Source: Chloroflexota bacterium (GTDB lineage: Bacteria > Chloroflexota > Anaerolineae > DUEN01). Taken from it: a stretch of DNA of 64,000 nt. The stretch covers positions 24,558 to 88,557 of the forward strand of contig JAADGJ010000059.1 in the NCBI GenBank assembly GCA_013152435.1, given 5' to 3'. Position 1 is the first letter of the stretch; every line of letters begins with the position of its first letter. The position numbers were made by a program, and so were the translations under genes. Below are positions 2,474 through 61,789 of this stretch, piece by piece. The notes below the pieces were generated by a model, which saw only the letters and a program-made list of their open reading frames with translations, was not told where the DNA came from and made no database searches.

Positions 2474-2667
2474 GGCGATGCCCTCCTTACGAATCGCGAG
2501 GACGGTCTCGATGCTCCGTATCCAGAGGAGACCAGAGAGATGTGAGTACGGCCTGCTGCATTATACACCAGATCGCATTGACGCTCAATAGTCAGCGTGG
2601 TAGGATAGTGTATCCGGGGGATGGCAAATCTTGTGAGAGGGCCTGCCCCGTGATCGGGTGCGTCTGG

Positions 2668-2926
2668 GAGTATGTCTGAAAAACGCTGTTGCTTCTGCTG
2701 GGAGGAGGCCCGGAGGGGCGGAGCCCCTCCGGAAAAAGCTCTTCTTTTGCCCTCGACCTGTCCAGCCTCGACCTGGGTTCCGCGGAAAGGGCCGAGAAAG
2801 GCAAGTACAGGCCGGAAAGGTGGGATTTCCGTGGAGGGGAGGACCCCTCCACACCTCCCTCTGCGGAGCTGGTCGTTGAGGGAGCCTCCTCAGAACATCT
2901 TGCCGGTAAATTTTCAGACACGCTCT
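2668..2926 (+). repeat. family-1 structured intergenic repeat, copy A (MITE-like, 12-nt TIR GAGYGTGTCTGA / TCAGACACGCTC)
   Basis: Aligns along its length with 19826-20067 and, in reverse orientation, with 59963-60198. The internal inverted repeat is cgacctgYccagcctcgRcc / ggccgagaRaggcaggtacagg. It lies in the divergent spacer between the LysM gene and the exonuclease gene. Confidence 0.7.
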
Positions 2927-3077
2927 GAGCCGGCCGGGATCGCCGCCGGGGGTGGAGCGGGATAGGGATAGCGTAAGCCTGTTCCTCCTTGACTCCTGGG
3001 GCGAGCGCCCTTTCTCCAGCTTGCGGTTCAATGTGGCGTTGTCAGGGTGAAGCATCTCTCTGGGGGAAGCTCGGAAT

Positions 3078-3914
3078 ATGGAATCCATGGGACGTCCATC
3101 GCTTTCGCTGCCGCTTACGCAGGTGCTCTTCACCGTCCTGGACGTGGAGACCACCGGCTTGGATGTCAGCCTTGGGCATCGTCTGTGTGAGATCGCCCTC
3201 GTGCGCGGGCGGGTTGGGCAGGAGCCCGAGGAGTTCTCCCAATATGTCAACCCGGAGCGGCCGGTAGATCCTGGAGCCCGCGCGGTGCATGGGATCCCCG
3301 ATACGGTCCTGTGGCGATCGCCGCGCTTCGCCGAGATCGCCCCATCCGTGCGAGATCTGGTGGAGGGCACTGTGATCGTCGCCCACAACGCCCCGTTCGA
3401 CCTCGGCTTTCTGGCGGCCGAATGGAGGCGTCTGCGGTGGCCCGCGCCGGCCGTGCACATCGTCGATACGCTCTCCCTGGCGCGGCGCTGGTTGCGGCTC
3501 CCAAACAATCGGCTGGGTTCCGTCGCGCGGGCGTTGAGGGTCTCCGTCCGAGGAGCGCACAGCGCTCTGGGCGACGCCCGCATGACCTGGGGGGTCTTGC
3601 AAGCGCTGATTCGTTATCTACAGGGGTATGGATTCACCACTTTGGGCGATCTGATCAACGCGCAGGGCGGGCCCGTGGTCTGGCCTGGCACGATGTGGCA
3701 GAACCTGCCCGATCCGTTGCGGGAGGCGCTTCAGACCGGCCGCAGGCTCTGGTTGCGCTACCTGGGCCAGCGACGTGACCTGACCGAGCGATGGGTCGAG
3801 CCGCTGGATGTGAACGGCGGATATCTGATCGCCTATTGTCACCTGCGTGGAGAACAGCGTACGTTCCGGCTGGATCGGATCCTGGAGATGCGCCTTGAGG
3901 ATAGAAACGCCTGA
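3078..3914 (+). CDS. DEDDh 3'-5' exonuclease (DnaQ / Pol III epsilon-like) fused to a C-terminal WYL domain
   Basis: Exo I motif VLDVETTGL, then HNAPFDLGFL and a late HSALGDARMT motif. The C-terminus RLWLRYLGQ..WVEPLDV..GGYLIAYCHLRGEQRTFRLDRI matches the WYL fold signature. Confidence 0.75.
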   Translation: MESMGRPSLSLPLTQVLFTVLDVETTGLDVSLGHRLCEIALVRGRVGQEPEEFSQYVNPERPVDPGARAVHGIPDTVLWRSPRFAEIAPSVRDLVEGTVIVAHNAPFDLGFLAAEWRRLRWPAPAVHIVDTLSLARRWLRLPNNRLGSVARALRVSVRGAHSALGDARMTWGVLQALIRYLQGYGFTTLGDLINAQGGPVVWPGTMWQNLPDPLREALQTGRRLWLRYLGQRRDLTERWVEPLDVNGGYLIAYCHLRGEQRTFRLDRILEMRLEDRNA

Positions 3915-6907: not shown

Positions 6908-7600
6908 TCACTTATCCGGGCGGATGCCGAAGCGGTACCCCACGCCCGGGGTGGTCACGATCGCCTGTTCGCTGAGCTTGGAGCGCAGCCTCCCCACGTA
7001 GATGTGGATGTAGTGGGTTGCGCCCTTGTACTCCGGTCCCCAGACTCGGGTCAGCAGCTCGTCATGGGAGAGGACGCGAGGGGCGTTGCTTGCCAGCTCG
7101 TAGAGAAGGTTGTATTCCGTGGGGGTCAGGTGGACCGGTTTGCCATTCCATTCGACCGCGTGCGTCTCGCCGCTGATGTGCAAGGGGCCCAGCGTGATGT
7201 CCCGATGGTTGGTGTGTTCCTTGATCGCCGAGGGCACGGAGCGACGGAGGACGGCGCGCACGCGGGCCAGGAGCTCCTGTACGCCGAAAGGCTTCGTGAG
7301 ATAGTCATCCGCCCCCAGGTAGAGCGCCTGGACCTTGCCATCCTCATCACCGCGGGCGCTGAGGACGACGATGGGCACGACCGAATCCTCGCGAATGCGT
7401 CGGCATACGGCCCACCCATCCAGGCGAGGCATCATCAGGTCGAGGATGATCAGGTCGGGCTCCTGGGATGTGAATTGCTCCAGCGCCTCTATGCCATCTT
7501 GGGCTTGGATCACCCGGAACCCTCGCCGGGTGAGGTTGACCTCCAGAAATCTCAGAAGGTAGGGATCGTCATCGACGGTTAAAATCGTGAGATCGTTCAT
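6908..7600 (-). CDS. OmpR-family DNA-binding response regulator
   Basis: REC domain (ILTVDDD..DLIILDLMMP..KP) plus a winged-helix C-terminus (GYRFG). Its start overlaps the stop of the upstream kinase by 4 bp. Confidence 0.85.
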   Translation of the reverse strand: MNDLTILTVDDDPYLLRFLEVNLTRRGFRVIQAQDGIEALEQFTSQEPDLIILDLMMPRLDGWAVCRRIREDSVVPIVVLSARGDEDGKVQALYLGADDYLTKPFGVQELLARVRAVLRRSVPSAIKEHTNHRDITLGPLHISGETHAVEWNGKPVHLTPTEYNLLYELASNAPRVLSHDELLTRVWGPEYKGATHYIHIYVGRLRSKLSEQAIVTTPGVGYRFGIRPDK

Positions 7601-10974: not shown

Positions 10975-12060
10975 CTAAGCGTGAGATCTGCGGTGTCGAT
11001 GGAGGAGGGATGCTTGTAGACGGTGTCGTCGTCGCATGATCTCCAGCACACGGGGCATGGCAAAGTTGTAAAAGCGATAGCCGGCCTGCGATACGGGATA
11101 GTCCCACGCGCCGATCCAGGCGGTGAATCGGCCTCCGAAGCCGGCCTTGAATCGATAGACGCCCCACATGGGATCGCTCTTTTCCAAGACGTCCGGCGCT
11201 CCCCAAAGATCGTATGTGGTACACCCCTGGGCGCGTGCCCAGCGGATGGCCTCCCACTGAAGCAGATGGTTGGGCATGCGGCGTCGCTCCCGGTGGGAGG
11301 AGGCCCCATAGAAGTACCAGGCGGTCGGACCGAATCGCAACAGGAAGATCCCGGCGATGGGCTGAGCTTCTACCTCCGCCAGCAGGAGATGGCCCTGTCC
11401 GGCCTCCAGAAACCGCTGCCACACGAACCGATAGTAAGGGAAGGGGCGGATCAGGAACCCGTCGCGCTGGCTGGTCTCCGCGTACAGGGCGTAGAAGGTG
11501 CCCAGATCGGCCGGGGTGCCCGCGCGCACGGTGACCCCTCGCCGTTGGGCCAGCCGGATATTATACCGCCATTTGGACTTCATCGCCAGCAGCAACGCCT
11601 CCTCGTCGGGGCGTAAATCGATGAGCAGGGTGTTCCGGAACTGGATCTGCTCGGCGGAGGGGCGCCACCCGCGCGCTTTCAGGAGCCTGCGCACCTCCTC
11701 TCCGGCGGGCGTGTCGGCGGGCACGTCCGGGTCGATCTTGACGAAGAGCACCCGTTGTCGTCGGGCCTCCGCTTCCAGGGCCTCCAGGGCTGCCTGGACG
11801 GCTTGCGGGTCCTCCCAATTCAGGGTTGGGCCTTTGGGCACATAGGCGATGCGGAAGGGAAGGCGGTTGAGGGCGCGAACCAGTAGCGCGATGGCCGCTA
11901 CAGGCGCCTCCTCGTTCGTGACCAGGAGCCGGTGGACCTGCCATCCCGTCTGGGTCTTGCACTCACCCCACAGCCAGCTCTGCAGGACGTGCGGCCGCGG
12001 CCATTGCAGGAGCGCCTCATCCCAGGCCTGAGGCTCGTCGATTCGCCGCACCGCGATCAT
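10975..12060 (-). CDS. FemAB-family aminoacyl-tRNA-dependent peptidoglycan bridge transferase, paralog 1
   Basis: The listed ORF 10975-12633 carries a spurious 191-aa Arg/Pro-rich N-terminal extension. The real start is taken as MIAVRRIDEP, overlapping the upstream paralog's stop as ATGA. It has a KSKWRYNIR motif and the FemAB fold. Confidence 0.7.
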   Translation of the reverse strand: MIAVRRIDEPQAWDEALLQWPRPHVLQSWLWGECKTQTGWQVHRLLVTNEEAPVAAIALLVRALNRLPFRIAYVPKGPTLNWEDPQAVQAALEALEAEARRQRVLFVKIDPDVPADTPAGEEVRRLLKARGWRPSAEQIQFRNTLLIDLRPDEEALLLAMKSKWRYNIRLAQRRGVTVRAGTPADLGTFYALYAETSQRDGFLIRPFPYYRFVWQRFLEAGQGHLLLAEVEAQPIAGIFLLRFGPTAWYFYGASSHRERRRMPNHLLQWEAIRWARAQGCTTYDLWGAPDVLEKSDPMWGVYRFKAGFGGRFTAWIGAWDYPVSQAGYRFYNFAMPRVLEIMRRRHRLQASLLHRHRRSHA

Positions 12061-13115
12061 GCTTCCCTCCGGCGTAGACGTCTGCCCACCCGATAGAGCG
12101 CGTATCCCGGACGGGAGAGCGGCTTTTCCCATGCGCCCATGAAGCGCACGATGCGCCCGCCGAACCCCTGCTTGAACCGGTAGACGCCCCACAGCCCGCC
12201 CCTCCGACCGACGTCGGAGGATGTGAACACCTCGGGGTTTCGGCCCACCTCGTCCGGGATGCCCCACAGATCGTACAGGCGACAGCCGCGGTCCCTGGCC
12301 CAACGCATGGCCGCCCATTGCAGCGCGTGGTTGGGCATGAGGTTTCGGCCCTGGCTGGCCGACGCCCCCCAGAAATACCACGCCCGGTCGCCGTGGGCGA
12401 GGACGACGATGGCGGCCAGCAGGTGCTCTTGGTGTTCGGCCAGCAGCCATGCGGCCTGTCCCGTGGGGGTGAAGAGGTCGTAGGCGGCCTCGTAATACGC
12501 GGCCGTGTGGATCCCGAAACCGTCTCGTCGGGCCGTCTCCTGCATGAGCGCGTACACGGCGGGAAGATCTTCCCGGGTGCCCGCGCGCACGGTGACCCCC
12601 TTCCGGGCGGAAAGGCGTATGTTGTATCGCCACTTGGACTTCATGCGGGCCAGCATCGCGTCGTCGTCATCGAGCTCGATCACGATGGTACTGCGGGGTT
12701 GGATGGGCTGGGGGGCCGGCCGCCACCCCCCTGCGCTCAGCGATGAGGCGGCCTCAGACCCATCCGGAAGATCTGGCTCCATCAGGAGCACGGCCGCGTG
12801 GGAGCGCCGCGCCATGGCCTCAAGGGCCCGCCATAGGGCGTGAACCTGATCGGGGCGTCCCCAGTCCACGATCGGCCCCTTGGGAATGTAGGCCAGCGTC
12901 TGTCCCCAGGGAAGCCGTCGGAACAGGATCTGGGCGCCGGCTGTGATCTCATCGCCATCGACCAGGGCCACGCGATGAACCCGCCAGCCGAAGCGGGCCT
13001 TGAGTTCGCCCCACAGGCGATGTTGCAGGATGTGCGCGTCCTTCCTGCGGGTAAGCCAGGCGTCCCATCTCTCATCGGGTAGATTCGCATCCAGGGTGGA
13101 AAGGGTCGTGGTCAT
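12057..13115 (-). CDS. FemAB-family aminoacyl-tRNA-dependent peptidoglycan bridge transferase, paralog 2
   Basis: Start taken at MTTTLSTLD. It shares KSKWRYNIRL, MPNHALQW, YDLWG and FKQGFGG blocks with paralog 1. Confidence 0.7.
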   Translation of the reverse strand: MTTTLSTLDANLPDERWDAWLTRRKDAHILQHRLWGELKARFGWRVHRVALVDGDEITAGAQILFRRLPWGQTLAYIPKGPIVDWGRPDQVHALWRALEAMARRSHAAVLLMEPDLPDGSEAASSLSAGGWRPAPQPIQPRSTIVIELDDDDAMLARMKSKWRYNIRLSARKGVTVRAGTREDLPAVYALMQETARRDGFGIHTAAYYEAAYDLFTPTGQAAWLLAEHQEHLLAAIVVLAHGDRAWYFWGASASQGRNLMPNHALQWAAMRWARDRGCRLYDLWGIPDEVGRNPEVFTSSDVGRRGGLWGVYRFKQGFGGRIVRFMGAWEKPLSRPGYALYRVGRRLRRREA

Positions 13116-17879: not shown

Positions 17880-19154
17880 TTGTTCTTTGACGAGGCGCGT
17901 ATCTACGTGAAGGGTGGAGACGGCGGAAACGGCTGCGTGTCGTTCCGCCGTGAAAAATATGTGCCGCTGGGCGGGCCCAATGGTGGCAATGGCGGGCGCG
18001 GCGGGAACGTCTACCTGGTGGTCGATCCCTCCCTGAACACGTTGGTCCATTTCCGGAGGAAGATCCACTTCAAGGCGGAGAAGGGGGGGAACGGGCGCGG
18101 CAAAGAGCAACATGGCCGTAAAGGGGCCGACTTGTTCGTCCCGGTGCCGCCTGGGACGGTCGTCTATGACGATGAGACTGGGGAGCTGCTGGCGGATCTG
18201 GTAGAGCCCGGCCAGAAGGCGTTGGTCGCCCGCGGCGGCCGGGGCGGGCGTGGCAACGCGGCCTTTAAGAGCCCCACGAACCAGGCCCCGCGCATCGCGG
18301 AGCGGGGTGAGCCGGGGGAGGAGCGGTGGCTGCGCCTGGAGCTCAAGCTCATCGCCGACGTGGGTCTCATTGGGGTGCCCAACGCCGGAAAGTCCACGTT
18401 GCTGGCTCGCGTGACGGCGGCCAAGCCTAAGATCGCCGATTACCCCTTCACGACGTTGCAGCCCAACCTGGGCGTCGTCCAGATCGATCATCGCGACTTC
18501 GTGATGGCCGATATCCCAGGGCTCATCGAGGGAGCGCACAGCGGCGCGGGGCTGGGAGATCAGTTCCTGCGTCATGTCGAGCGCTGTCGAGTGTTGATCC
18601 ACCTCCTGAACGGCCTCAGCCCGGATCCCGTCGGCGATTGGGAGGCCATCAACCAGGAGCTGGAGCTCTTCAATCCTCGTTTGGCGGCGAAACCCCAGAT
18701 CGTGGCCTTCAATAAGATGGACCTGCCGGAGGTGCGGGAGCGCTGGCCCGAGGTCCGTCAGGCGTTGTTGGACCGGGGCGTCGAGGACCCGATGGCCATC
18801 TCCGCCGCCACCGGTGAGGGCGTCCCCGCCCTGCTGCAGCGCGTCCTGAGTCTGCTCGATCGCCTGCCTAAGGAGCCGGAGGCCGTCGCCGAGGAGCTTC
18901 GGGTGTTCCGGCCGGAGCCGGACGAGGCGGAGTTCACCATCGAGCGAGACGGGGACGTCTGGCGGGTCAAGGGCAAACGGGTCGAGCGCGCCGCTGCCAT
19001 GACGAATTGGGAATATTACGAGGCCGTGCAACGGTTCCAGCGCATTCTGGAGGCGATGGGGGTGACCCAGGCGCTGGAGGAGGCGGGAGTGCAGGACGGC
19101 GATACGGTGATCATCGGTGATACAGAGCTGGTGTGGGGCGACCAGGAGGCATGA
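17880..19154 (+). CDS. obg: GTPase Obg
   Basis: Glycine-rich Obg fold ([28 protein letters not shown]). G1 [13 protein letters not shown]3 DIPGLIEGA and G4 NKMD motifs. TTG start with GAGGCGGGG RBS. Confidence 0.9.
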
Positions 19155-19810
19155 TGCGTATCGGGATTCTGGGGGGGACGTTTGATCCTCCTCATATCGG
19201 ACATCTCATCCTGGCGGAGGAGGCCTGGTCGCAGTTGAATCTGGATCGGGTGCTCCTGGTGCCGGCCGGCGATCCTCCTCACAAGCGGGGACAGCCTCTC
19301 TCCCCCGCGTTCCACCGTGTGCGCATGGTGGAGCTGGCTATTGCGGACAACCCGCATCTGGAGCTTTCCCGGGTCGATGTCGATCGACCGGGCCCGCATT
19401 ACACCATCGACATGGTGCATATCCTGCGTCGGCAGTTCGCGAACGATGAAGTGGAGTTGTTCTTCCTGATGGGGCTGGATTCTCTGGCGGATCTGCCTCA
19501 TTGGCACCGCGCGGCCGATCTGGTCGCCACCTGTCACCTCGTCGCCCTCAGCCGTCCCTATGTCTCCCTGGACTGGGAGCATCTGGAGCGCGCGCTGCCG
19601 GGCATCCGCCAGCGGGTGATCCTGCTGGATATGCCCGAGCTGGAGATCGCCTCGCATATCTTGCAGCAGCGTGTGCGGCAGGGGCGTCCGATCCGCTATC
19701 AAGTGGTGCCGGCGGTGGAGGAATACATCTATCGCCATCACCTGTATCGTCCTTCCCCGGCTCCGACGGCCGCTGCCCCCGAATCCTGTCGGGCCTCGGC
19801 TGGATCTTAG
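19151..19810 (+). CDS. nadD: nicotinate-nucleotide adenylyltransferase
   Basis: [12 protein letters not shown] motif. ATG with AGGAGG RBS; its start overlaps the obg stop. Confidence 0.85.
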
Positions 19811-19825
19811 AGGGGAGCCGTAGCT

Positions 19826-20067
19826 GAGGGTGTGTCTGAGGAATGCCGTCGCTTCTGCTGTGGGGAGCCCCTCCGGAAAAGGTCCTTCTTCTGCCTTCGA
19901 CCTGCCCAGCCTCGGCCTGGGCCCTTCGGGATGGGCCGAGAGAGGCAGGTACAGGCCGGAAAAGTGGGATTTCCGTGAAGGGGGGACCCCTCCGCACCTC
20001 CCCCTGTGGAGCGGGTCGTTGAGGGAGACCCTCCGGCACCTCTTATTGGAAGTTTTCGGACACGCTC
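19826..20067 (+). repeat. family-1 structured intergenic repeat, copy B
   Basis: Aligns with copy A end to end, with TIRs gagggtgtgtctga / tcggacacgctc. It lies between nadD and the M20 peptidase gene. Confidence 0.7.
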
Positions 20068-20228
20068 TGAGCCTAAGCGGTCGTCGGCGCAGGGTCAGAG
20101 ATTATGTCGGGGGAAGGGGGACGATTCGCTCCCCTTTCCCCGGGTAGTGGGGCTTCCATGCCCCACCTGCGGCGGCATGGAAGCCATCGCTGCCGAATGA
20201 TTTGAATCTGGATCGTGTCGAGGAGCTT

Positions 20229-21440
20229 ATGGATCTGTCTTCTGACCAAATCGCTGCGGTTCGCGCCGATGTGGAGCGCGCGGCCGAGTCCATGATCCAT
20301 TTCCTACGGGCGATCTGCGCCATCCCATCCTATGATGGGAAGATCGGCCCCGTCGGGGAGCGTTGCGCGCAGGAGATGCGCAAGCTGGGTTTCGATGAGG
20401 TGCGCTTCGATCGTATGGGGAATATCCTGGGCCGCATCGGGGATGGGCCGCGCGTCCTCCTGTACGATAGTCACATCGATACGGTGGGCATCGGCGATCC
20501 GGACGCGTGGGAGTGGGATCCATTCCAGGGCAAGGTCGAGGATGGCATCCTGTTCGCCCGCGGCGCAAGCGATGAGAAAGGCTCCACGCCGGGCATGATC
20601 TACGGGCTGGCCATCGCACGGGATCGTGGGTTGCTTCAGGGCTGGACGGTGTACTACTTCGGCAACATGGAGGAGTGGTGTGATGGGATCGCCCCCAACG
20701 CCCTGGTGGAGGTGGAGGGCATTCGCCCCGACTACGTGGTGATCGGCGAGCCGACGAACATGCGGGTGTACCGGGGGCACAAGGGGCGGGTCGAGATGAA
20801 GGTGGTGGCCAAGGGACGCAGCGCGCACGCGGCCTCCAACCATCTGGGGGACAACGCCATCTACAAGATGCTGCCGGTCATTGAGGCCATCCGGGACATG
20901 GAGCCATCCCTGGGAGATGATCCGTTCCTGGGGCATGGCAAGATCACCGTCACCGACATGCGCGTGCGCACGCCATCCATCAACGCCGTCCCTGACGAAT
21001 GCACGATCTTCATCGATCGACGCCTGACCCTGGGGGAGAGTAAGGAGGCCGCGCTGGATCAGGTGCGTCGGCATATCCCCCCCGGCTCCGAGATCACCGT
21101 GGAGATCCTACAATACGCCGAGCCCTCGTACACGGGGTTCGTCTTTCCGGTGGAGAAGTACTTCCCCGCCTGGGTGTTGGAGGATGATCATCCACTGGTG
21201 CGAGCGGGCCAGGTGGTGCGTCGGGCCATCGGATTGCCGGACGCGCCGGCGGGCAAGTGGGATTTCAGCACGAACGGGATCTATTGGATGGGGAAGGCGG
21301 GCATCCCCAGCATCGGGTTCGGCCCCGGCAATGAGGTTCACGCACATACTGTCTTGGATCAGGTCCCCCTGGCCGACGTGGTTCAGTCGGCCGCTTTCTA
21401 CGCGCTGTTGCCCGCCGCGTTAGGGGATGTTGCCTCCTGA
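20229..21440 (+). CDS. M20-family metallopeptidase / amidohydrolase (ArgE/DapE/YgeY-like)
   Basis: Metal-ligand contexts LYDSHIDTV, GASDEKGS, GEPT and GHKG. ATG at 20229 is preferred; a TTG at 20202 is in frame. Confidence 0.8.
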   Translation: MDLSSDQIAAVRADVERAAESMIHFLRAICAIPSYDGKIGPVGERCAQEMRKLGFDEVRFDRMGNILGRIGDGPRVLLYDSHIDTVGIGDPDAWEWDPFQGKVEDGILFARGASDEKGSTPGMIYGLAIARDRGLLQGWTVYYFGNMEEWCDGIAPNALVEVEGIRPDYVVIGEPTNMRVYRGHKGRVEMKVVAKGRSAHAASNHLGDNAIYKMLPVIEAIRDMEPSLGDDPFLGHGKITVTDMRVRTPSINAVPDECTIFIDRRLTLGESKEAALDQVRRHIPPGSEITVEILQYAEPSYTGFVFPVEKYFPAWVLEDDHPLVRAGQVVRRAIGLPDAPAGKWDFSTNGIYWMGKAGIPSIGFGPGNEVHAHTVLDQVPLADVVQSAAFYALLPAALGDVAS

Positions 21441-29799: not shown

Positions 29800-29960
29800 T
29801 GTCTAATGGATGGAAAGGAGAAAGTATCTTCGGGCGGAGGGGAGTCCCTCTCCGGCCTGCACCTGCCTTGCTCGGCCCTTTCCGAAGGATCCAGGCCGGG
29901 GCCGGGCAGGTCGAAGGCAGAATCGGAGGGGGGATCGTGCGGCCGGTCCGAGGAGATGGC
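29800..29960 (-). repeat. degenerate or partial family-1 repeat, copy C (reverse orientation)
   Basis: Core 29835-29935 is the reverse complement of the family-1 central inverted-repeat segment (ttctgccttcgacctgccc..ggccgagcaaggcaggtgcagg). The termini have diverged. Confidence 0.45.
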
Positions 29961-30692: not shown

Positions 30693-30714
30693 GTAGACAT
30701 TACTACGGGATAAC

Positions 30715-30812
30715 CCGAAGGAGCAAAGCCCCCCGGAAAGATCTCTTTCTCCGGCCTCCGATCTGCCGGGCCTCGGCCCAGATCCCCACACAAAGGACCG
30801 AGGCCCGGCAGG
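30715..30812. repeat. short family-1-like hairpin fragment
   Basis: ccggaaagatctctttctccgg, then ctgccgggcctcggcc..ggaccgaggcccggcag, echoing the family-1 internal palindrome. Confidence 0.3.
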
Positions 30813-30837
30813 TGCTGGCTGGGAGGTGAGAGCTCTG

Positions 30838-31038
30838 GGGAGGGAGAATCTGCCTCCCCATTGGTATCAACTTAAGCGATATGGAAGCGTGGCCCCGCAT
30901 CTCTGGGGTGGTTCGGAGGGGCTTCCCCTCCGCCCCCCCCTTTCAGGTGCGACCGCCCGTGGAGGGAAAAGGTGGCAGGCAGGGGCCTCGCTCATGCTGT
31001 TCAGTTGATGCGAATAGGAGGGAGAATCTGCCTCCCCT
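30838..31038 (+). repeat. family-2 structured intergenic repeat, copy D (157-bp core 30860-31016 flanked by 21-nt direct repeats GGAGGGAGAATCTGCCTCCCC)
   Basis: Core attggtatcaac..ctgttcagttgatgcgaat is shared with 45801-45957 and 60281-60427. The flanking direct repeats are themselves hairpins. Confidence 0.7.
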
Positions 31039-31183
31039 TGGGAGGGCACAGAGGTAGGGAGCACCTTCGGGCGCCGAGCCGGCGAATTTTCCGGTGTGCT
31101 CTCCGCGAATGGCTCGATGTTCGACGGGGCGTGGACGGAAGGCGTCGAAGGGAGCCTGCCTCCATGGACGGGCCGTGATGACG

Positions 31184-44794: not shown

Positions 44795-44882
44795 GCCGAA
44801 GTGGCGGAACAGGCAGACGCGCTACGTTCAGGGCGTAGTGGGCTTTACGCCCGTGTGGGTTCAACTCCCACCTTCGGCACCA
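44795..44882 (+). tRNA. tRNA-Leu (anticodon CAG), class II with long variable arm
   Basis: Acceptor GCCGAAG/CTTCGGC, D arm GCGG..., anticodon stem CTACG/CGTAG with loop TTCAGGG, variable arm TGGGCTTTACGCCCGTG, T arm GTGGGTTCAACTCCCAC, discriminator A and encoded CCA. Confidence 0.85.
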
Positions 44883-44891
44883 GGCGGTGAT

Positions 44892-44922
44892 CCCAGCGCT
44901 GCAGGGCAGGCTGGGATTTTGT
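44892..44922 (+). terminator. hairpin CCCAGCGCTGC..GCAGGCTGGG followed by ATTTTGTT
   Basis: Immediately 3' of tRNA-Leu. Confidence 0.35.
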
Positions 44923-44953
44923 TACGGCTCCGTCTCTGAAAGGAGCGACGATC

Positions 44954-45355
44954 GTGTCTTACCGGATGCGGCGATATTCGCTGAACCTGTCGCAGTGGAT
45001 GATATTGATCACGATCGTGTTCCTGGCGCTTCTGGGGGTGGGATATATCGAGCGCCGGGCGACGCTGGCCTCCCTGAAGGGCGAGCTGGCGCAGACGAGG
45101 GAGATGGTTCAGGGGGCTCAGCAGCGTCAGGGTGAGCTGTTGGGGTATCTGGAGTATGTCCGGAAGGACTTGCACATCGATGCGATGGCTCGTTCATTGT
45201 TGGGGTGGGCGAAGCCGGAGGACGTGGCAGTGGATGTGATCCCGGAGGATGCCCCTCTGCCGACGCCGGAGATCGCGGAGCCCTTGCAGGAGGAGGAGCA
45301 GGGACAGAGGCGGATGCCGTGGCAGGCGTGGTGGGATCTGTTCTTCGGCCCATAG
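44954..45355 (+). CDS. FtsB/DivIC/FtsL-like septum formation initiator family membrane protein
   Basis: GTG start with AAAGGAG RBS, one transmembrane helix (WMILITIVFLALLGVGYI), a coiled-coil segment and an acidic Pro-rich tail. Confidence 0.55.
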   Translation: MSYRMRRYSLNLSQWMILITIVFLALLGVGYIERRATLASLKGELAQTREMVQGAQQRQGELLGYLEYVRKDLHIDAMARSLLGWAKPEDVAVDVIPEDAPLPTPEIAEPLQEEEQGQRRMPWQAWWDLFFGP

Positions 45356-45419
45356 CGGGATATCTTGTGGCCATGGAATTTGACAGTCGTGCCGCCGCCG
45401 AGTATAATCGTAAGCGTGC

Positions 45420-45493
45420 TGCGGGGTGGAGCAGAGGCAGCTCGTCGGGCTCATAACCCGAAGGTCGCAGGTTCGAATCCTGCCCCCGCTACC
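45420..45493 (+). tRNA. initiator tRNA-fMet (anticodon CAT)
   Basis: Three consecutive G-C pairs closing the anticodon stem (TCGGG CTCATAA CCCGA) and an unpaired 1:72 position (U:U). High identity to canonical initiator tRNA. The 3' end reads ACCT, so CCA is not fully encoded. Confidence 0.8.
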
Positions 45494-45497
45494 TAAA

Positions 45498-45536
45498 GGC
45501 TGATGGGTTTGGGAGGGTTTCCACCATCAGCTTTTC
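45498..45536 (+). terminator. hairpin GGCTGATGG..CCATCAGC followed by TTTTCGCTC between the two Met tRNAs
   Basis: 8-bp stem plus T tract. It could be a processing or attenuation structure. Confidence 0.3.
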
Positions 45537-45549
45537 GCTCTCAGCGTGT

Positions 45550-45624
45550 GGCGACGTAGCTCAGATGGCAGAGCAAGCGGCTCATAATCGCTGGGTCACT
45601 GGTTCGAGTCCAGTCGTCGCCACC
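45550..45624 (+). tRNA. tRNA-Met elongator (anticodon CAT; tRNA-Ile2-lysidine cannot be excluded)
   Basis: Acceptor GGCGACG/CGTCGCC, anticodon loop CTCATAA, T arm CTGGTTCGAGTCCAG and discriminator A. The 3' end reads ACCT. Confidence 0.75.
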
Positions 45625-45779: not shown

Positions 45780-45979
45780 GGGCGACTCATGAATCGCCCC
45801 ATTGGTATCAAGGTATGCGATACGGAAGCGTGGCCTCGCATCTCTGGGGTGGCTCGGAGGGGCTCTCCCTCCGCACCTCCCCTTTCAGGTGTGACCGCCT
45901 GTGGAGGGAAAAAGCAACAGGCGGGGGGCTCACCCACGCTGTTCAGTTGATGCGAATGGGGCGACTCATGAATCGTCCC
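45780..45979 (+). repeat. family-2 structured intergenic repeat, copy E (core 45801-45957 flanked by direct repeats GGGCGACTCATGAATCG(C/T)CCC)
   Basis: The core aligns with copies D and G. The flanking 21-nt hairpin is duplicated with one mismatch. It lies next to the tRNA cluster. Confidence 0.7.
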
Positions 45980-58991: not shown

Positions 58992-59735
58992 TTATTCCTG
59001 CAGTTTCGCTCGCACGATCACGCGATGGGTGTTCGTCCAGAAAGGCCAACAGGTGATCAACGTCAGGCTGGGCTCATCCGTGGGAGCCATCCATTGGGCG
59101 TTCTTCCGCCGTTCCTCCTCAGAGGCGCCGACTTCCTGTAACAGCAGGACCTGTTCCACTTGATACGTATAATCACGCCCGTCGGCCGTGTAGACCTGGA
59201 TCTCCGCTCCCGGGATCAGCCGGGGCTCCTTGCGATCGATATCCCGGCTGATCTGCTCGAAGACCTTTCCCTTGATATTATGGTGTCCGGAGATGACCAC
59301 GTTGCCGACCTGCCCCGGATTGGCGCTGTTGACGTGATGGCCGGCTGCGTAATCGGCGGTTTGCCACTCGCTGCGTCGTTCCTCGCCCTCCCCCACGATG
59401 TGCCATCCAACCTCTACGACGGGTACGTCGATGCCAAGCGCGGGGATCACCAGGCGTACCGGTGGGCTGTCAGGCGTCGGTGTGGGGGGGATATGGGATA
59501 CGCCCTCCTCTTGGATGGGCTTCGTTGGGACAGGGGTCGACGTTGCCTGTGGGCGCGGTGTAGAGGTCGCGTCGGTGACCTGCGAGACGGTCTCGGTGAC
59601 CGTGGGAAGTGCCTGCTCGGGCTCCTGCCGCGCACTGCATCCTACGATGATGCCCAAGAGCAACATGAGGCTGGCTGCAAGCAACCTTATCAATGGTAAG
59701 AATTGGTACGAGCGGATCTTTCGTATGATAGGCAT
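58992..59735 (-). CDS. sortase-family transpeptidase (class E/F-like)
   Basis: N-terminal transmembrane anchor, catalytic His (ISGHHNI), catalytic Cys TLxTC (SLTLITCWPF) and Arg (RVIVRA). Start taken at MPIIRK. Confidence 0.7.
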   Translation of the reverse strand: MPIIRKIRSYQFLPLIRLLAASLMLLLGIIVGCSARQEPEQALPTVTETVSQVTDATSTPRPQATSTPVPTKPIQEEGVSHIPPTPTPDSPPVRLVIPALGIDVPVVEVGWHIVGEGEERRSEWQTADYAAGHHVNSANPGQVGNVVISGHHNIKGKVFEQISRDIDRKEPRLIPGAEIQVYTADGRDYTYQVEQVLLLQEVGASEEERRKNAQWMAPTDEPSLTLITCWPFWTNTHRVIVRAKLQE

Positions 59736-59962
59736 CTGCTTTTTGGTGATGATCCCGCATCCCAGCCGGCGAACCCGTGTCCCGCTCTCTACAGTACATG
59801 TCAACGTGAATCGCAAAAGGCTACCAGCGTATGCTATTATATCCTAGCCAGAGCGAAAAGGCAATACGTTTGCTTACCTATGTGGGTGGACGTGATTTCC
59901 CCGTGCCGCTCGTTTTCCTGGCTCCCTCAAAGGTTTCCATCTTTTTTGGCTCGTGTGTGTTA

Positions 59963-60198
59963 GAGCGTGCCTGAGGATTTATCGGCAAGGTGTCTGAGGG
60001 GTCTCCCCCAACGACCCGCTCCACAGGGGGAGGTGTGGAGGGGACCTCCCCTCCACGGGAACCCCCTCGCTTTTCCGGCATGCACCTGCCTTTCTCGGTC
60101 CTTCCCAAGAGATCCAGGCCGAGGCCGGGCAGGTCGAAGGCAGGAGAAGGACTTTTTCCACCCCACAGCAGAAGCAACGGCGTTTCTCAGACACACTC
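59963..60198 (-). repeat. family-1 structured intergenic repeat, copy F (reverse orientation)
   Basis: Its reverse complement aligns end to end with copies A and B, with TIRs gagcgtgcctga / tcagacacactc. Confidence 0.7.
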
Positions 60199-60257
60199 TT
60201 CTTGATCTTCACGTGGTGAAAGAAACATGCGGGCCGCGTCATTCATTTCGGATAAGT

Positions 60258-60449
60258 GGGGGCAACCCACCGGGTCGCCCGTTGGTATCAGGTTAAGCGA
60301 TACGGAAGCGTGGCCCCACATCTCTGGGGTGGCTCGGAGGGGAAGCCCCTCCCCTTTCAGGTGTGACCGTCTGTGGAGGGAAAAGCGACGGCGGGGACCT
60401 CGCCCACGCTGTTCAGTTGATGCGAATAGGGCGACTCGCCAGGTCGCCC
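60258..60449 (+). repeat. family-2 structured intergenic repeat, copy G (core 60281-60427, flanked by GGGCAACCCACCGGGTCGCCC / GGGCGACTCGCCAGGTCGCCC)
   Basis: The core aligns with copies D and E, with loop indels in the internal GGAGGGG hairpin. It lies directly next to family-1 copy F. Confidence 0.7.
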
Positions 60450-60589
60450 TACAGAACCCTGCTATTTCCTGAAAACCAGGGTTCATACCATAGGTTGACG
60501 GATAGCACATTTGTTCTTATAATGAGGATGTAAGGATGGGTGACACAGAGGAGGGAGCTCGCGAGCAGGTGAGGTAGAGGGAGGATCGG

Positions 60590-61789
60590 ATGCTCGTAAA
60601 GGCGGTGGTGGACGTCCGTGACCGGGTGTCCTTGCTGAGTCAGGCCGCTCGATATGACGCCTGTCCGGAGGCCGGGCGGGTTGTCTCCGCCCCGCCCACG
60701 CGGGGGGCGAGGGTGCCCGCGGGATTCCTGCCGGAGCAGCGGGTCTCGCATGTCCTCGCCGGGGGACGGCGCATGCCCGTGCTCAAGATCTTGCAGACCA
60801 GCGCCTGCGAGCGGAACTGCTTCTATTGCCCCTTCCGCGCGGGTCGAGGGTTCCGCCGCGAGTCCCTTTCCCCCGACGACCTGGCTCACACCTTCGATCA
60901 GATGACCCGCGCCGGATTGGTGGAGGGGCTGTTTCTGAGCTCCGGCATCCTGAACACGACCCGCAGCATGGACCAGATGATCGCCACCGTCGAGATCCTG
61001 CGCCGGAAGTATGAGTTTCGCGGGTATGTCCACCTGAAGCTGTTGCCCGGCGCGGAGGCGGCGCACATCGAGCGGGCGATCGCGCTGGCGGATCGGGTGA
61101 GCGTGAACCTGGAGGCGCCGACGCCGGCTCGTCTGGCGCGGCTGGCGCCTCGCAAGGAGTTCACCCGTGAGCTGTGGGATACGCTGCACCGCGCGGCGGC
61201 TCTGATTCGGATGATGCGGCGGGAGGGGCGACCTGCCGCCCGCGCCGGCATCGTCACCCAATTCGTCGTCGGGCCCGCCGGGGAGAGCGATCGGGAGCTG
61301 TTGGCCACCGTGCAGGCCCTATACAATGCTCAGGTGCTCTCCCGGGCGTACTTTAGTGCCTTTTCCCCCGTCCCCGATACCCCGCTGGAGGACCATCCAC
61401 CGACCCCCTCACTGCGTGAGCATCGCCTCTATCAGAGCGATTTCCTCCTCCGCTACTATGGGTTCCGCGCCGATGAGTTGGTCTATGATGAGGATGGCCA
61501 TCTCGTGCTGGATCGGGATCCGAAGCTGGCCTGGGCGCTGGCGCATCCGGAGCGGTTCCCGATCGAGGTGAACCGGGCGGGGCGTCATCTTCTCCTTCGC
61601 GTGCCGGGCATCGGCCCGCGTTCGGCCGATCGCATCCTCGCGGCCCGTCGCTGGGGGACGCTGCGCGATCTGGGCCAGCTGAGGCGTCTGGGTGTGAATA
61701 CGGAACGGGCGGCCCCCTTCCTCCTCCTGGCCGGGCGCGCTCCGGCCGTTCAACTCCCGCTGTTCCCCGAATGGCGCGCCGCATCCTGA
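60590..61789 (+). CDS. putative DNA modification/repair radical SAM protein (TIGR03916-like) with C-terminal helix-hairpin-helix
   Basis: CxxxCxxC motif TSACERNCFYCPF, N-terminal AARYDAC, and C-terminal HhH (LLRVPGIGPRSADRILAARRWGTL). Confidence 0.7.
   Translation: MLVKAVVDVRDRVSLLSQAARYDACPEAGRVVSAPPTRGARVPAGFLPEQRVSHVLAGGRRMPVLKILQTSACERNCFYCPFRAGRGFRRESLSPDDLAHTFDQMTRAGLVEGLFLSSGILNTTRSMDQMIATVEILRRKYEFRGYVHLKLLPGAEAAHIERAIALADRVSVNLEAPTPARLARLAPRKEFTRELWDTLHRAAALIRMMRREGRPAARAGIVTQFVVGPAGESDRELLATVQALYNAQVLSRAYFSAFSPVPDTPLEDHPPTPSLREHRLYQSDFLLRYYGFRADELVYDEDGHLVLDRDPKLAWALAHPERFPIEVNRAGRHLLLRVPGIGPRSADRILAARRWGTLRDLGQLRRLGVNTERAAPFLLLAGRAPAVQLPLFPEWRAAS

Follow-up and report, generated by a model that had tools for sequence, protein, structure and literature searches.

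The 64-kb window (the whole stretch of DNA analyzed, 64,000 nucleotides with a GC content of 64%) carries five members of a short repeat, which we call family 1. They were identified with a profile HMM built from 17 copies and searched against the window with nhmmer, and they comprise three full copies (c1, c2 and c3), one core fragment (c4) and one diverged copy (c5) (Table 1). All copies are intergenic, as the earlier note on this DNA had stated, with three in spacers between divergent genes, one between co-directional genes and one between convergent genes. The spacer of c2 is tight: the copy begins 17 nt past the stop codon of the cytidylyltransferase-like gene and ends 134 nt before ygeY.

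Table 1. Family-1 and family-2 elements with their ends, flanks and neighboring genes. Positions refer to the window unless a locus is named.
Feature	Position	Strand	Description
c1, long form	2668-2925	+	258 bp; nhmmer E 7e-82
c1 left TIR	2668-2679		GAGTATGTCTGA
c1 right TIR	2914-2925		reverse complement GAGCGTGTCTGA
c1 flanks	2665-2667; 2926-2928		TGG; TGA
c1 neighbors	926-2473; 3078-3914	-; +	LysM gene; RNase_T/WYL gene; divergent
c2, short form	19828-20067	+	240 bp; TIRs and perfect TSD
c2 TIRs			GGGTGTGTCTGA and, as reverse complement, GAGCGTGTCCGA
c2 TSD	19825-19827; 20068-20070		TGA on both sides, perfect
c2 core hairpin	19897-19960	+	TCGACCTGCCC..CTCGGCC loop GGCCGAG..GGCAGGT
c2 neighbors	19133-19810; 20202-21440	+; +	cytidylyltransferase-like gene; ygeY-type M20 hydrolase gene; co-directional
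c3	59963-60198	-	236 bp
c3 TIRs	60187-60198 (- strand); 59963-59974		GAGTGTGTCTGA; GAGCGTGCCTGA
c3 flanks			GAA; TAA
c3 neighbors	58992-59816; 60590-61789	-; +	sortase gene; radical-SAM gene; divergent
c4, core fragment	29846-29925	-	~80 nt; HMM positions 75-157; E 1.1e-21
c4 neighbors		-; +	multihaem cytochrome gene; isochorismatase gene; divergent
c5, left part	30701-30857	+	old, diverged; nhmmer E 9e-14
c5, right part	31036-31102	+	degenerate right TIR TCCGGTGTGCTC
c5 neighbors		+; -	isochorismatase gene; MR_MLE gene; convergent
Family 2	30858-31018		~150-160 nt
Family 2	45797-45960		~150-160 nt
Family 2	60280-60430		~150-160 nt
Family 2, locus L022	about 6927-7110		~150-160 nt

The full copies of family 1 are 236-259 bp long and non-coding, with four or five GC-rich hairpins between the ends. 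A 24-nt pattern of the core, TCGACCTGYCCRGCCYCGRCCTGG, has four matches in the window where shuffled sequences predict 0.01, and the terminal pattern GAGYGTGTCTGA, with at most one mismatch, has six matches where 0.59 are expected. All six are ends of c1, c2 and c3. The earlier note had listed four copies, all of which are present, and three of them align over their full length. The one it described as degenerate, at about 29800-29960, does exist, but it is merely the core hairpin region without TIRs. Judged by TIR and target-site duplication, the start of c2 moves from 19826 to 19828 and the end of c1 from 2926 to 2925. The fifth copy, c5, was absent from that list. It is broken inside its GGAGGGG..CCCCTCC-type hairpin by an element of a second family, and when this insertion and one AGGGAGAATCTGCCTCC duplicate are removed it matches HMM positions 30-258 (E 1.8e-21).

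Alignment of the copies together with their flanks places the boundaries of the element at GAG...CTC, and GAGYGTGTCTGA is found at both ends of every two-ended copy. The arms of the TIRs are not the perfect-looking repeats of the first description, matching at 10/12 positions in c1, 9/12 in c2 and 10/12 in c3, and imperfect similarity between them extends to about 17-25 nt. As reported earlier, the copies contain the internal palindrome (CCTGCCC..CTCGGCC / GGCCGAG..GGCAGG) and GGAGGGG-N-CCCCTCC hairpins, and c1 carries an extra hairpin, CCGGAGGGGC-loop-GCCCCTCCGG. Column identity across the 17 copies is 93-94% in the TIRs, 93% in the core hairpin and 84-89% elsewhere; a core hairpin more conserved than the ends was considered and rejected on these values.

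Beyond the window, we scanned one genome per species (185,579 species) for the core pattern, and sorted true members from the resulting 64 loci with blastn. Family 1 occurs in one further genome only, the Chloroflexota MAG Dive96_bin10.82 (JAJRVX01), a fragmented assembly in which 10 loci together carry 14 or more copies or fragments with identities of 76-91%. The hundreds of copies per genome suggested in the earlier note are an extrapolation from the density in the window. The remaining loci of the 185,579-species scan are 24-30-nt chance matches in GC-rich genomes and contain no family-1 copy. No copy was found in JGI metagenomes scanned with a 21-mer from the right end, blastn against a plasmid collection returned chance matches of about 24 nt only, and the TIR string had no match in the literature. 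The earlier note had held that restriction to the window would count against a dispersed repeat, and had proposed BLASTN against related genomes. The MAG copies lie outside the window and are dispersed at non-homologous sites: the JAJRVX01 loci share no coding synteny with it, so the copies occupy unrelated positions. Several are at or near contig ends, which fits a repeat that breaks MAG assemblies.

Inspection of the flanks for target-site duplications, also proposed earlier, revealed a 3-bp TNA duplication that is perfect in five of the ten two-ended copies (c2 TGA, L062 TAA, L030 TAA, L003 TCA and L022a TGA; L numbers denote loci outside the window). In three more the duplications match at two of three positions (c1 TGG/TGA, c3 GAA/TAA, L005a TAA/TGA), and the flanks of the L041 and L044 copies show no match. 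Taken singly, 18/24 flanks read TNA, compared with about 3% expected in a 64% GC genome. Outside the duplication, the left-hand base is usually C and the right-hand base usually G, and the preferred target is therefore given as C|TNA|G.

Short derivatives retain both ends and the duplication (L022 122-281, 160 bp, TGA/TGA; L003 5135-5343, 209 bp, TCA/TCA). Tandem or nested arrangements also occur: two copies abut in L005, a solo TIR lies beside the L003 copy, and the L041 copy has a partial left end next to it. Such derivatives and arrangements are expected of a transposon, unlike a static motif. We infer mobility from the target-site duplications because the search for empty orthologous sites yielded none for the family-1 copies. 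The spacer of c2 was compared among orthologues of the neighboring ygeY-type hydrolase, which is 100% identical to a protein from a Chloroflexi bacterium MAG and whose nearest named relatives (~73%) are from Anaerolineae. Synteny in the relatives stops exactly at the spacer upstream of the ygeY orthologue, where c2 sits, so that relatives at 76-80% nucleotide identity offer no comparable site. Downstream, the gene order ygeY - carbamate kinase-like - PALP - metallo-beta-lactamase-fold (20202 onward) is kept in three relatives (L160-L162) at the same 76-80% nucleotide identity.

The copies give rise to false reading frames. The spurious ORFs 2585-3583(-) and 19548-20039(-) named in the earlier note exist and span copies. 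The first, which crosses c1, has no Pfam match and overlaps the real RNase_T gene on the opposite strand. A sister assembly, GCA_054014295.1, is 98.9% identical to the window over 16.8 kb (L065) and shares c4 and c5; its public annotation calls an 83-aa gene, also without a Pfam match, over c4 (L065 5988-6071). Masking of family-1 copies would improve gene calls of this kind in an uncultured Chloroflexi lineage. Two repeats of other kinds were seen in the window. The LysM/FG-GAP gene next to c1 contains an internal 148-nt tandem repeat (80% identity, 2048-2360), and the segments 11102-11607 and 12127-12668, about 1 kb apart and 70-72% identical, suggest tandem paralogous genes.

Bacterial MITEs are recognized by small size, TIRs, direct repeats and the lack of a transposase gene (PMC11578231), and family 1 combines small size, TIRs, target-site duplications, the lack of any gene and dispersed copies. 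Its TNA duplications and GAG...CTC ends are those of IS5-family elements of the IS427/IS1031 type. We are therefore confident that family 1 is a MITE and that an IS5-family transposase of the IS427/IS1031 type most likely moves it in trans. Among the observations that sit poorly with this reading, half of the two-ended copies have no perfect duplication, and the homology between c3 and the L044 copy in JAJRVX01 that extends beyond the left TIR is unexplained by simple insertion. This shared flank covers ~130 nt (window 60199-60279 and 60431-60500; L044 968-1089); the neighboring genes differ, and both copies are without a clean target-site duplication. Either a longer or composite variant or another repeat, seen in two copies, could lie behind it. 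At the other end of the L044 copy, a glycosyltransferase-like ORF (L044 1330-2682, - strand) stops inside the family-1 right TIR (...KRVSEN*), and the insertion appears to have replaced the original 3' end of this gene.

As proposed, the element would keep only the terminal sequences recognized by a DDE transposase (GAGYGTGTCTGA, with weaker similarity to ~20 nt). An IS5-family enzyme of the IS427/IS1031 type, made elsewhere in the genome, would bind both inverted ends and cut the target at TNA with a 3-nt stagger, preferring C|TNA|G. Insertion of the element followed by repair of the stagger would then leave the flanking TNA duplication. We infer both the mobilization in trans by an IS5-family enzyme of the host and the cut-and-paste chemistry.

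The assignment to IS5 is made because of the TNA duplication together with a bona fide IS5-family insertion sequence whose 15-nt terminus is identical. This insertion sequence, 880 bp long with GAGCGTGTCTGAAAA at both ends, was recovered from IMG/VR with a degenerate TIR scan (L094 5577-6456 and L137 1589-2467), and is also present in part in the IMG/VR contig L134. Its OrfA is a DUF4096 protein (PF13340, E 4.8e-32) that scores 138.5 bits with the NCBIfam model NF033580 'IS5 family transposase', above the cut-off of 110. OrfB is a DDE_Tnp_1 / DDE_Tnp_1_2 protein, and an A7 slippery run lies between the two, an arrangement of two ORFs with a frameshift site as in the IS427 group. Family 1 has the same 15 nt, GAGCGTGTCTGAAAA, at its right end, and the targets, C|TA|G and C|TNA|G, have the outer C...G in common. 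However, the 880-bp element is autonomous and duplicates TA within CTAG (CTA|IS|TAG), one base shorter than the family-1 stagger; it occurs in low-GC viral or prophage contigs and has no internal similarity to family 1. Given its low-GC IMG/VR contigs and its duplication of TA within CTAG rather than TNA, this element represents a relative of the enzyme expected for family 1, not the partner itself. A 142-bp MITE with the ends and flanks of the 880-bp element was seen in another IMG/VR contig (L122 12181-12322).

The same terminus bounds other small elements. The metagenome scan with the right-end 21-mer returned 13 JGI contigs (L067-L083) with an internally unrelated MITE family of ~128-207 nt, whose terminus is GAGCGTGTCTGAAAATT / GAGCGTGTCTGAAAATTCACC and whose TNA duplications are perfect in eight of nine loci, or about six of seven independent sites. 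This family has the terminus, TNA duplication and C|TNA|G context in common with family 1, but it is shorter and has an unrelated interior and different host contigs. Two stretches of L079 (7200-7277 and 8356 onward) hold a further MITE type with the GAGCGTGTCTGAAAATT terminus. At least two MITE families besides family 1, with this terminus and TNA duplications, are thus present on contigs of other organisms. In all, GAGCGTGTCTGAAAA bounds one IS5-family insertion sequence and three or more unrelated families of MITEs from different hosts, and is therefore useful for probing a widespread IS5 subgroup that targets C|TNA|G or C|TA|G.

Which transposase family mobilizes these ends had been asked in the earlier note. 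The question can be answered at the family level (IS5, IS427/IS1031-like), but the autonomous partner was not found in the host sequence searched. With tblastn and the L094 proteins, no autonomous insertion sequence with family-1 ends and no IS5-type transposase was detected in the window, ~60 kb of JAJRVX01 or the metagenome loci, and three TIR-pattern scans of IMG/VR yielded one type of insertion sequence with a matching terminus, which has another host and duplicates TA. An annotated IS5-like element, ISSfl7, shares only the GTGTC core of its TIR with family 1.

That the MITE is moved by a transposase outside IS5, such as an IS630/Tc1-mariner, IS30 or IS982-like enzyme that also makes short duplications, seems to us quite unlikely. 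IS630-family elements target TA within CTAG and duplicate TA, and the autonomous insertion sequence with the family-1 terminus sits in just such a site, CTA|IS|TAG; in addition, no cognate insertion sequence was found in the host sequence searched. Against this, the same insertion sequence encodes DUF4096 and DDE_Tnp_1 proteins and passes the NCBIfam equivalog model for IS5. The duplication in family 1 is TNA rather than the TA made by IS630. Members of the IS1031 group, within the IS5 family, commonly share an insertion site of three nucleotides (PMC2516522), and canonical relatives of PIF/Harbinger, a superfamily related to IS5, likewise produce 3-bp duplications (PMC12730594).

Genes for structured non-coding RNAs, or cis-regulatory RNA elements, that are immobile and retained for their fold would account for the several stable GC-rich hairpins kept across copies, for a fold of c2 somewhat more stable than that of shuffled sequences (z -2.5 on the + strand, -1.8 on the - strand) and for a hairpin tip that varies among CCC/GGG, TTCC/GGAA and TCC/GGA. 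However, RNAalifold on the 17 copies predicts 28 pairs, of which one shows a compensatory change and the others are invariant; these pairs give no evidence of a selected RNA fold, although invariant pairs do not speak against one either. No Rfam family was matched at its gathering score, the hairpin matches being at chance level (E >=0.2), and orientation is unbiased, with seven copies pointing towards a gene start and six towards a gene end. Such RNAs would also leave the TIRs and target-site duplications, the deletion derivatives and the nested insertions unexplained, and we regard them as a very improbable origin of the repeat. Slightly less credible again is a palindromic repeat of the REP/BIME kind that recombination or an IS200/IS605-type enzyme (RAYT) has spread. 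Copies of family 1 are indeed intergenic, GC-rich, hairpin-rich and found in both orientations, and GGAGGGG..CCCCTCC hairpins are present in family 2 too. REPs, however, are 20-40-nt palindromes without TIRs or target-site duplications, whereas family 1 has a unit of 240-260 bp, well-defined TIRs and duplications of 3 bp, and within the window GGAGGGG..CCCCTCC is confined to families 1 and 2. We give almost no credence to a duplicated gene fragment or pseudogene remnant. Long ORFs do cross the copies on both strands, but indels between copies disrupt the reading frames, the ORF over c1 is the one without a Pfam match that overlaps the real RNase_T gene, and peptides from the best-conserved frame of the element have no homologue among 5.8 billion proteins. 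The earlier note's distinction between a dispersed repeat and a gene fragment is thus settled in favor of the repeat.

A role for the element beyond its own movement was also considered. Each of c1, c2 and c3 points at a co-oriented gene start 134-152 nt away; a fixed orientation or ~140-nt spacing to gene starts was rejected with the MAG copies (7 start, 6 end). No promoter or terminator consensus sites were found around c2. It is doubtful that the family-1 hairpin array has been co-opted as a transcript-level signal, or that its hairpins are landing pads for family 2.

Returning to family 1 as an IS5-type MITE, its amplification is probably old and no longer ongoing, because the full copies are just 79-91% identical to each other and many are decayed, with eroded duplications, internal deletions, nested insertions and truncations. 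Some pairs between genomes (c1-L041, 91%; c3-L044, 90%) are more alike than any two copies from the window are to each other (80-81%), so the subfamilies, as judged from these identities, predate, or have crossed, the split of the two genomes.

Family 2, rather than family 1, is the most unusual element nearby. Its TIRs are ATTGGTATCAA... / ...TTGATGCGAAT, and direct duplicates of ~17-20 nt, GC-rich hairpins in their own right, flank each of its copies; AGGGAGAATCTGCCTCC, for example, is on both sides of the copy that interrupts c5. At L044 976-1089 there is just one hairpin, in place of the hairpin, family 2 and hairpin seen in the window. Family 2 looks like a hairpin-targeted insertion with an unusually long target duplication, well beyond that of most IS families. 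Should insertion directed by hairpins with a ~19-nt duplication prove real, it could represent a mode of transposition not yet described. One copy lies ~170 nt downstream of a tRNA cluster (Leu-CAG and two Met-CAT, window 44795-45624), and the hairpin that it hit, GGCGACTCATGAATCGCC, may be the terminator of this cluster. In L022 the 3' half of a family-1 element (7005-7110) is inside a family-2 element, with a shared GGAGGGG..CCCCTCC-type hairpin at one junction and TTA by the family-2 end at the other, which suggests nested insertion followed by recombination between similar hairpins. The group of the IS1202 family with target-site duplications of >15 bp (PMC10132070) is a loose lead for family 2; IS1202 elements end TGT...ACA.

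Among known systems, the IS1031 and IS427 groups resemble family 1 in their ends and short duplications. Ends in these groups begin GAG or GRG, and duplications are 3 bp for IS1031 and 2-4 bp for IS427. However, IS1031/IS427 elements are 0.8-1 kb long and encode their own transposase, whereas family 1 encodes nothing. Tourist/mPing-type MITEs, which belong to the PIF/Harbinger superfamily and duplicate TAA/TTA, are also non-autonomous, a few hundred bp long and flanked by a 3-bp duplication; unlike family 1, they have eukaryotic hosts and another TIR sequence and need a second, Myb-like protein. MITEPye1 of Paracoccus yeei is, like family 1, a small intergenic element with TIRs, direct repeats and stem-loops and without a transposase (PMC11578231). 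MITEPye1 has TIRs that match the IS1182 family and is present in 1-3 copies per chromosome (PMC11578231); family 1 has IS5-type ends and is locally much denser, with five copies in 64 kb. Family 1 is a new family of a familiar kind of element, from a lineage that has been little studied, and nothing in it alters existing knowledge of how bacterial MITEs behave.
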